Source: Escherichia coli (GTDB taxonomy: Bacteria; Pseudomonadota; Gammaproteobacteria; Enterobacterales; Enterobacteriaceae). Taken from it: 5,879 nt of DNA. Within the stretch, counting starts at the first letter, position 1, and every line of letters starts with the position of its first letter. The DNA is taken from the NCBI RefSeq assembly GCF_003334815.1, contig NZ_QOWO01000071.1, one strand, 5' to 3'. Under the pieces are notes generated by a model. That model was not told the DNA's origin. It worked only from the letters and a program-made list of their open reading frames with translations, and did not search any database. Positions 3,285 through 3,311 of the stretch are shown piece by piece. The position numbers were made by a program, and so were the translations under genes.

Positions 3285-3311
3285 TTTTCGGCCAGGAAAG
3301 GAAAAACTTTA
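3285..3311 (-). promoter_or_regulatory. tsr: Sigma-28 (FliA) class-3 flagellar/chemotaxis promoter for tsr
   Basis: The - strand reads TAAAGTTT-ttcctttcctg-GCCGAAAA: the -35 element is an exact match to the sigma-28 consensus TAAAGTTT, the spacer is 11 nt, and the -10 matches GCCGATAA at 7 of 8 positions. The -10 element ends 30 nt upstream of the tsr ATG. tsr is a known FliA-dependent gene. Confidence 0.85.

Follow-up and report, generated by a model that had tools for sequence, protein, structure and literature searches.

A 27-bp element upstream of tsr in Escherichia coli is almost certainly the sigma-28 (FliA) promoter of this serine chemoreceptor gene

The window analyzed here is a stretch of 5879 bp of E. 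coli DNA, and the 27-bp element at positions 3285..3311 on its - strand is almost certainly the sigma-28 (FliA) class-3 promoter of the serine chemoreceptor gene tsr. The tsr promoter is already known, and our analysis adds nothing new on the regulation of tsr. The element had been called beforehand from the letters of the window, without database searches (hereafter, the sequence-only reading), and the outcome indicates that a reading of this kind can correctly call a textbook regulatory element. Below we describe the element and the gene it serves, its match to published work on E. coli K-12, its distinctness within the window and its conservation, and the DNA found upstream of it in other E. 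coli genomes.

Results

A near-consensus sigma-28 element lies 30 nt upstream of the tsr start codon

The - strand of the window reads, in order, GGATATTCA TAAAGTTT TTCCTTTCCTG GCCGAAAA TCTTGCATCGGTCCACAGGAAAGAGAAACC ATG. The features that we assign to this region and to the gene downstream are as follows.

3304..3311, - strand: -35 octamer TAAAGTTT, 8/8 against the sigma-28 consensus
3293..3303, - strand: 11-nt spacer TTCCTTTCCTG, conserved in length and variable in sequence
3285..3292, - strand: -10 octamer GCCGAAAA, 7/8, with the GC extended -10 and the CGA core intact
3277..3279, - strand: expected +1, 6-8 nt past the -10 octamer, placed by spacing
3255..3279, - strand: 5' leader of about 23-25 nt, from the sequence and the expected +1
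3260..3268, - strand: Shine-Dalgarno-like purine-rich stretch AGGAAAGAG, from the sequence
1590..3254, - strand: tsr coding sequence, 554 aa, from the list of open reading frames, the translation, identity to K-12 Tsr and the RefSeq annotation

The sole mismatch to the consensus TAAAGTTT-N11-GCCGATAA is an A for T at position 6 of the -10 octamer (window 3287). The CGA core of the -10 element occupies 3288-3290, and 30 nt separate the end of the octamer from the tsr ATG at 3254. The sequence-only reading had reported two octamers on the - strand with an 11-nt spacer, a single mismatch and the coordinates 3285-3311, and all of these were exact when we re-read the - strand. A cryo-EM paper on sigma-28 from 2026 (PMC12784957) describes what the GC extended -10 and the flipped A(-11) contribute.

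The identity of the gene is clear from its product and its neighbors. The 554-aa product is identical to K-12 Tsr at 549 of 554 residues (99%), and the three long open reading frames of the window are arranged as in K-12 (btsT / tsr / lgoT). Many RefSeq E. coli chromosomes match the region at 100% identity, and in these it is annotated as tsr and a divergent btsT. A search of the whole window with Rfam at the gathering threshold returned no RNA families.

Two observations on the coding sequence stand apart from the promoter. The Tsr encoded here has three extra residues (QQH) compared to K-12 (residues 521-523; window 1686..1694, - strand), which sit in the glutamine run of the C-terminal linker, and it carries two substitutions, H178Y and E545G in K-12 numbering. 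In another strain, E. coli PCN061, an IS1A is annotated inside the region that matches a query of window positions 3100-3700 (two aligned pieces with a span of 1378 bp), and this match also has a separate feature annotated as 'Tar ligand binding domain-containing protein'. The arrangement suggests that tsr is disrupted by IS1 in PCN061.

The same promoter is documented in E. coli K-12

The tsr promoter of K-12 MG1655 has the same octamers, the same 11-nt spacing and the same 30-nt distance from octamer to ATG as the element in the window. The two alleles differ at spacer position 3294 (T here, A in K-12) and by an indel of 1 nt some 20 nt ahead of the -35, neither of which falls in a recognized element.

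Several lines of published evidence concern the K-12 allele. The promoter is sigma-28/FliA-dependent according to Kundu 1997, as cited in PMC4183435, and Hollands et al. 2010 count tsr among eight well-characterized sigma-28 promoters and mark identical -35 and -10 elements in their Fig. S2 (PMC2859248). Fitzgerald et al. 2014 list the motif TAAAGTTTTTCCTTTCCAGGCCGAAAAT upstream of K-12 tsr, with a fold-above-threshold value of 94 in FliA ChIP-seq, the third highest of 52 sites (PMC4183435). The center of that motif, after conversion of the coordinates, lies no more than 2 nt from the center of the 28-mer in the K-12 locus. In the same study, tsr RNA fell from 630 in motile MG1655 to 9 in a fliA deletion, a change flagged as significant (PMC4183435). 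Genomic SELEX with the RpoF holoenzyme gave a peak at 4589632 in the yjiY/tsr spacer (Shimada et al. 2017, PMC5493296), a position that falls within the K-12 tsr motif. By microarray, tsr was 5.4-fold down in a fliA mutant and 3.1-fold up on induction of sigma-F (Zhao et al. 2007, PMC1935009). Nothing specific to the tsr promoter was found in Fitzgerald 2017 (bioRxiv), a 2020 Salmonella preprint, a paper on sigma-28 sRNAs, the Tls paper or a Salmonella ChIP-exo paper.

The sequence-only reading had placed tsr in the late flagellar/chemotaxis regulon, and the K-12 ChIP-seq, SELEX and fliA-deletion RNA bear this out, with identical octamers in the window. FliA occupancy, holoenzyme binding and fliA dependence are published for K-12; by analogy, we infer that the promoter of the present strain would behave in the same way.

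The element is statistically distinct within the window

Searching both strands of the 5879 bp for the consensus with up to three mismatches returned the tsr element as the only match. The expected count for such matches was 0.03, and any match at all appeared in 6 of 200 shuffled sequences. By arithmetic, about 1e-4 matches per window are expected with at most one mismatch over the 16 specified bases.

We also scored the window with a FliA matrix, a check that the sequence-only reading had proposed. The matrix was built from 50 published ChIP-seq sites (Table 2 of Fitzgerald et al. 2014, PMC4183435), with both sites at the tsr locus omitted. With this leave-tsr-out matrix the tsr element scored 22.3 bits, far above the runner-up in the window (8.9 bits). 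None of 300 shuffles reached this score, the best of them giving 18.8 bits. The scores of canonical class-3 promoters span this value (tar, 27.5 bits; flgMN, 26.2; motA, 25.5; fliD, 20.5).

The runner-up, AAAGATTAATCTCCCTATGCCCGATAAC, is found at 1533..1560 (+ strand) in the spacer between the convergent genes lgoT and tsr. A weak FliA ChIP peak in the published set (fold-above-threshold of 3, listed as 'tsr/yjiZ convergent') corresponds to this site. Part of the site, CCCGATAA, contributes one arm to a terminator-like hairpin of 11 bp at 1549..1578, which consists of ATGCCCGATAA...TTATCGGGCAT followed by TTTTTAT. If active, the FliA site would direct antisense transcription into the 3' end of tsr.

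The element is conserved upstream of tsr in more than 20 genera

We scanned one genome per species with the sensory and HAMP region of Tsr and obtained 80 ortholog loci from more than 20 enterobacterial genera, including Escherichia, Citrobacter, Salmonella, Enterobacter, Leclercia, Lelliottia, Kluyvera, Buttiauxella, Cedecea, Trabulsiella, Franconibacter, Siccibacter, Hafnia and others. In all 80, the best matrix match within 250 nt upstream of the gene was at the same place, with the octamer ending 28-35 nt before the ATG. These promoters had a median score of 19.8 bits, compared to a median of 3.1 bits for control blocks of 250 nt taken from inside the gene. The -35 was TAAAGTTT at 77 of the 80 loci and GCCGA was present at every one. 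The spacer was 11 nt long throughout (80/80), and none of its columns was invariant.

To compare the parts of the promoter, we used 74 distinct sequences anchored on the pattern TAAAG[AT]T[TA]-N11-GCCGA. The mean majority fraction per column was 0.99 for the -35, 0.94 for the -10 and 0.69 for the spacer, and the invariance of the bases fixed by the anchor pattern is partly by construction. In the flanks of the same 74 sequences, this fraction was 0.47 over 25 nt upstream and 0.55 over 12 nt downstream. The true conservation result is that each of the 80 loci has exactly one match to the pattern within 120 nt upstream of the gene, at a constant distance from the start codon.

Expected transcription start and leader

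A start 6-8 nt past the -10 octamer would put +1 at 3277-3279 and would thus give a leader of 23-25 nt. The sequence-only reading had claimed a leader of about 25 nt, which agrees with the length computed from this expected start. We took this spacing from the start of aer, which was mapped by primer extension to 6 bp after its octamer (Hollands et al., PMC2859248), and from the numbering of the sigma-28 -10 octamer as -15..-8 on a cryo-EM scaffold (PMC12784957). Hollands et al. also put a CRP site of tsr at -132.5 (PMC2859248); in K-12 coordinates this number corresponds to a +1 six nt after the octamer, equivalent to 3279, and it may itself be a prediction. A mapped tsr start was not found in the supplements of Kim 2012, Cho 2014 and Ettwiller 2016, the tables of which may end before 4.59 Mb, and full-text literature searches on the tsr start returned no relevant paper on a mapped 5' end.

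Most of the 80 ortholog loci have a GGAAAGAGAAA-type stretch directly before the ATG. In the window, the leader carries CACAGGAAAGAG across the Shine-Dalgarno region (3260..3270, - strand). We take the ACAGGA core of this sequence to resemble the CsrA-type GGA motif.

The DNA upstream of the -35 differs among E. coli genomes

A 91-nt query containing the promoter matched 5197 of 5426 complete E. coli genomes. In 2759 of these the match also covered the 5' part of the query; the remaining matches begin at query position 21 or 24, equivalent to window position 3315 or 3312. Among representative genomes there were three upstream contexts. In the first, found in this window and in K-12, btsT is divergent from tsr. 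In the second (strain S56), the hpa operon, with hpaR as its last gene, lies directly upstream of the tsr promoter. In the third (O157:H7, strain 6EVA), a gene for a hypothetical protein of 180 aa lies between btsT and tsr. An alignment of five sequences showed that similarity across the three contexts starts 1-5 nt before the -35, that both octamers are identical and that 4 of the 11 spacer positions vary. A junction of genome plasticity lies 1-5 nt upstream of the tsr -35, and the DNA beyond it is different in about half of the complete E. coli genomes.

As a by-product of the analysis, these genomes provide a natural deletion series that bears on the upstream needs of the tsr promoter. The upstream DNA has been replaced and the promoter kept, which speaks against a need for any sequence beyond the -35. 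Judged from these comparisons, the promoter appears to be self-contained, requiring neither an upstream activator nor sequence upstream of the -35. We propose, tentatively, that the 27-bp promoter behaves as a module that has stayed intact at the recombination junction of the three contexts; we hold this to be possible and do not regard it as the probable case.

Other modes of tsr transcription are improbable

The upstream contexts also bear on other ways in which tsr might be transcribed. One is that the sigma-28 promoter additionally needs CRP as a co-activator, in the manner of aer and trg, bound at TGTGATTCATATCACA (3403..3418). This sequence is a perfect CRP-type palindrome, and CRP binds the tsr regulatory fragment tightly in vitro (PMC2859248). 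However, CRP activates aer and trg from -49.5 and the tsr site is centered at -132.5; in addition, Hollands et al. state, citing unpublished data, that CRP has no direct effect on tsr expression (PMC2859248). We found no CRP site of the aer/trg type at -49.5 of tsr, the only CRP-like site being the one at 3403..3418, about -132. Moreover, the palindrome is lost in genomes in which hpaR or another gene sits upstream of the -35, and the promoter is retained there; its retention in contexts that lack the CRP site argues that the site is not part of the tsr promoter, in agreement with Hollands et al. We consider a need for CRP very unlikely, and the palindrome more plausibly serves the divergent btsT than tsr.

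The region upstream of btsT also contains the direct repeats ACCGCTTA (3467..3474) and ACCACTCA (3488..3495), on the + strand and 13 bp apart. They presumably represent the binding motif of BtsR (YehT), as they have the form described for that motif at the yjiY/btsT promoter.

Still less likely is that the element resembles a sigma-28 promoter by chance and that the promoter actually used by tsr is of the sigma-70 type and lies farther upstream, within the intergenic region of 360 bp. A simple sigma-70 scan did give one weak match there (9/12; 3400..3371, - strand), but the number of sigma-70-like sites (two) was close to that expected by chance (1.2), and the DNA with this match is missing from about half of the E. 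coli genomes, in which other genes abut the -35. In K-12, the level of tsr RNA is about 70-fold lower without FliA, which leaves little room for a sigma-70 promoter (PMC4183435), and a chance resemblance is at odds with retention of the FliA motif at all 80 ortholog loci. Direct activation by FlhDC with sigma-70 in addition to FliA, the dual class 2/class 3 arrangement that exists at fliA, flgM, flgK, fliD and fliL, is just as improbable for tsr, which is absent from the 11 FlhDC ChIP sites listed for K-12 and retains only about 1.4% of the wild-type RNA level in a fliA deletion (PMC4183435).

A non-consensus base in the -10 element is conserved

The single departure of the sigma-28 promoter of tsr from the consensus is at a position with a strong preference in E. 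coli: T is found at position 6 of the -10 in 48 of 52 FliA sites, with an information content of 1.55 bits. Among the 74 distinct tsr promoters from more than 20 genera, 60 have A at this position, 8 have C and 6 have T, such that a base other than T is kept in about 90%. Among the 52 FliA sites, a perfect TAAAGTTT is found only at tsr and tar.

The class-3 promoter of tar-tap-cheRBYZ (meche), TAAAGTTT-N11-GCCGATAA, has the same architecture as that of tsr and the same perfect -35. Both genes encode major chemoreceptors and both are strongly FliA-dependent. The two promoters differ in the -10, which is the full consensus at tar and has the A for T, conserved across genera, at tsr. The genes aer and trg are, like tsr, chemoreceptor genes located outside the flagellar regions and served by sigma-28 promoters, and the -10 of aer (GCCGACAT) also has no T at position 6. 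In contrast to tsr, with its perfect -35 and a CRP site at -132.5, aer and trg have a weak -35 and need CRP at -49.5 (PMC2859248).

Discussion

The arrangement of the element suggests how tsr would be transcribed. In FliA-RNA polymerase, domain 4 of sigma would bind TAAAGTTT, and domains 2 and 3 would bind the composite -10 GCCGAAAA with its GC extended -10 and CGA core. The DNA would melt from the A of the CGA, and transcription would start about 6-8 nt downstream, near 3277-3279, to give an mRNA whose leader is about 24 nt long. FlgM keeps FliA inactive until the hook-basal body is complete. Because of this, tsr is expressed late, as are flagellin, the motor and the remaining chemotaxis genes.

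The conserved A at position 6 of the -10 might be a selected tuning feature that is paired with the perfect -35. We regard this as a tentative idea, more doubtful than probable, and the conserved deviation could simply be tolerated. If tuning is the case, the mismatch would set the abundance or the timing of Tsr relative to Tar and the products of other class-3 genes, and the conserved non-consensus base may offer a handle on how the strength of sigma-28 promoters is tuned.
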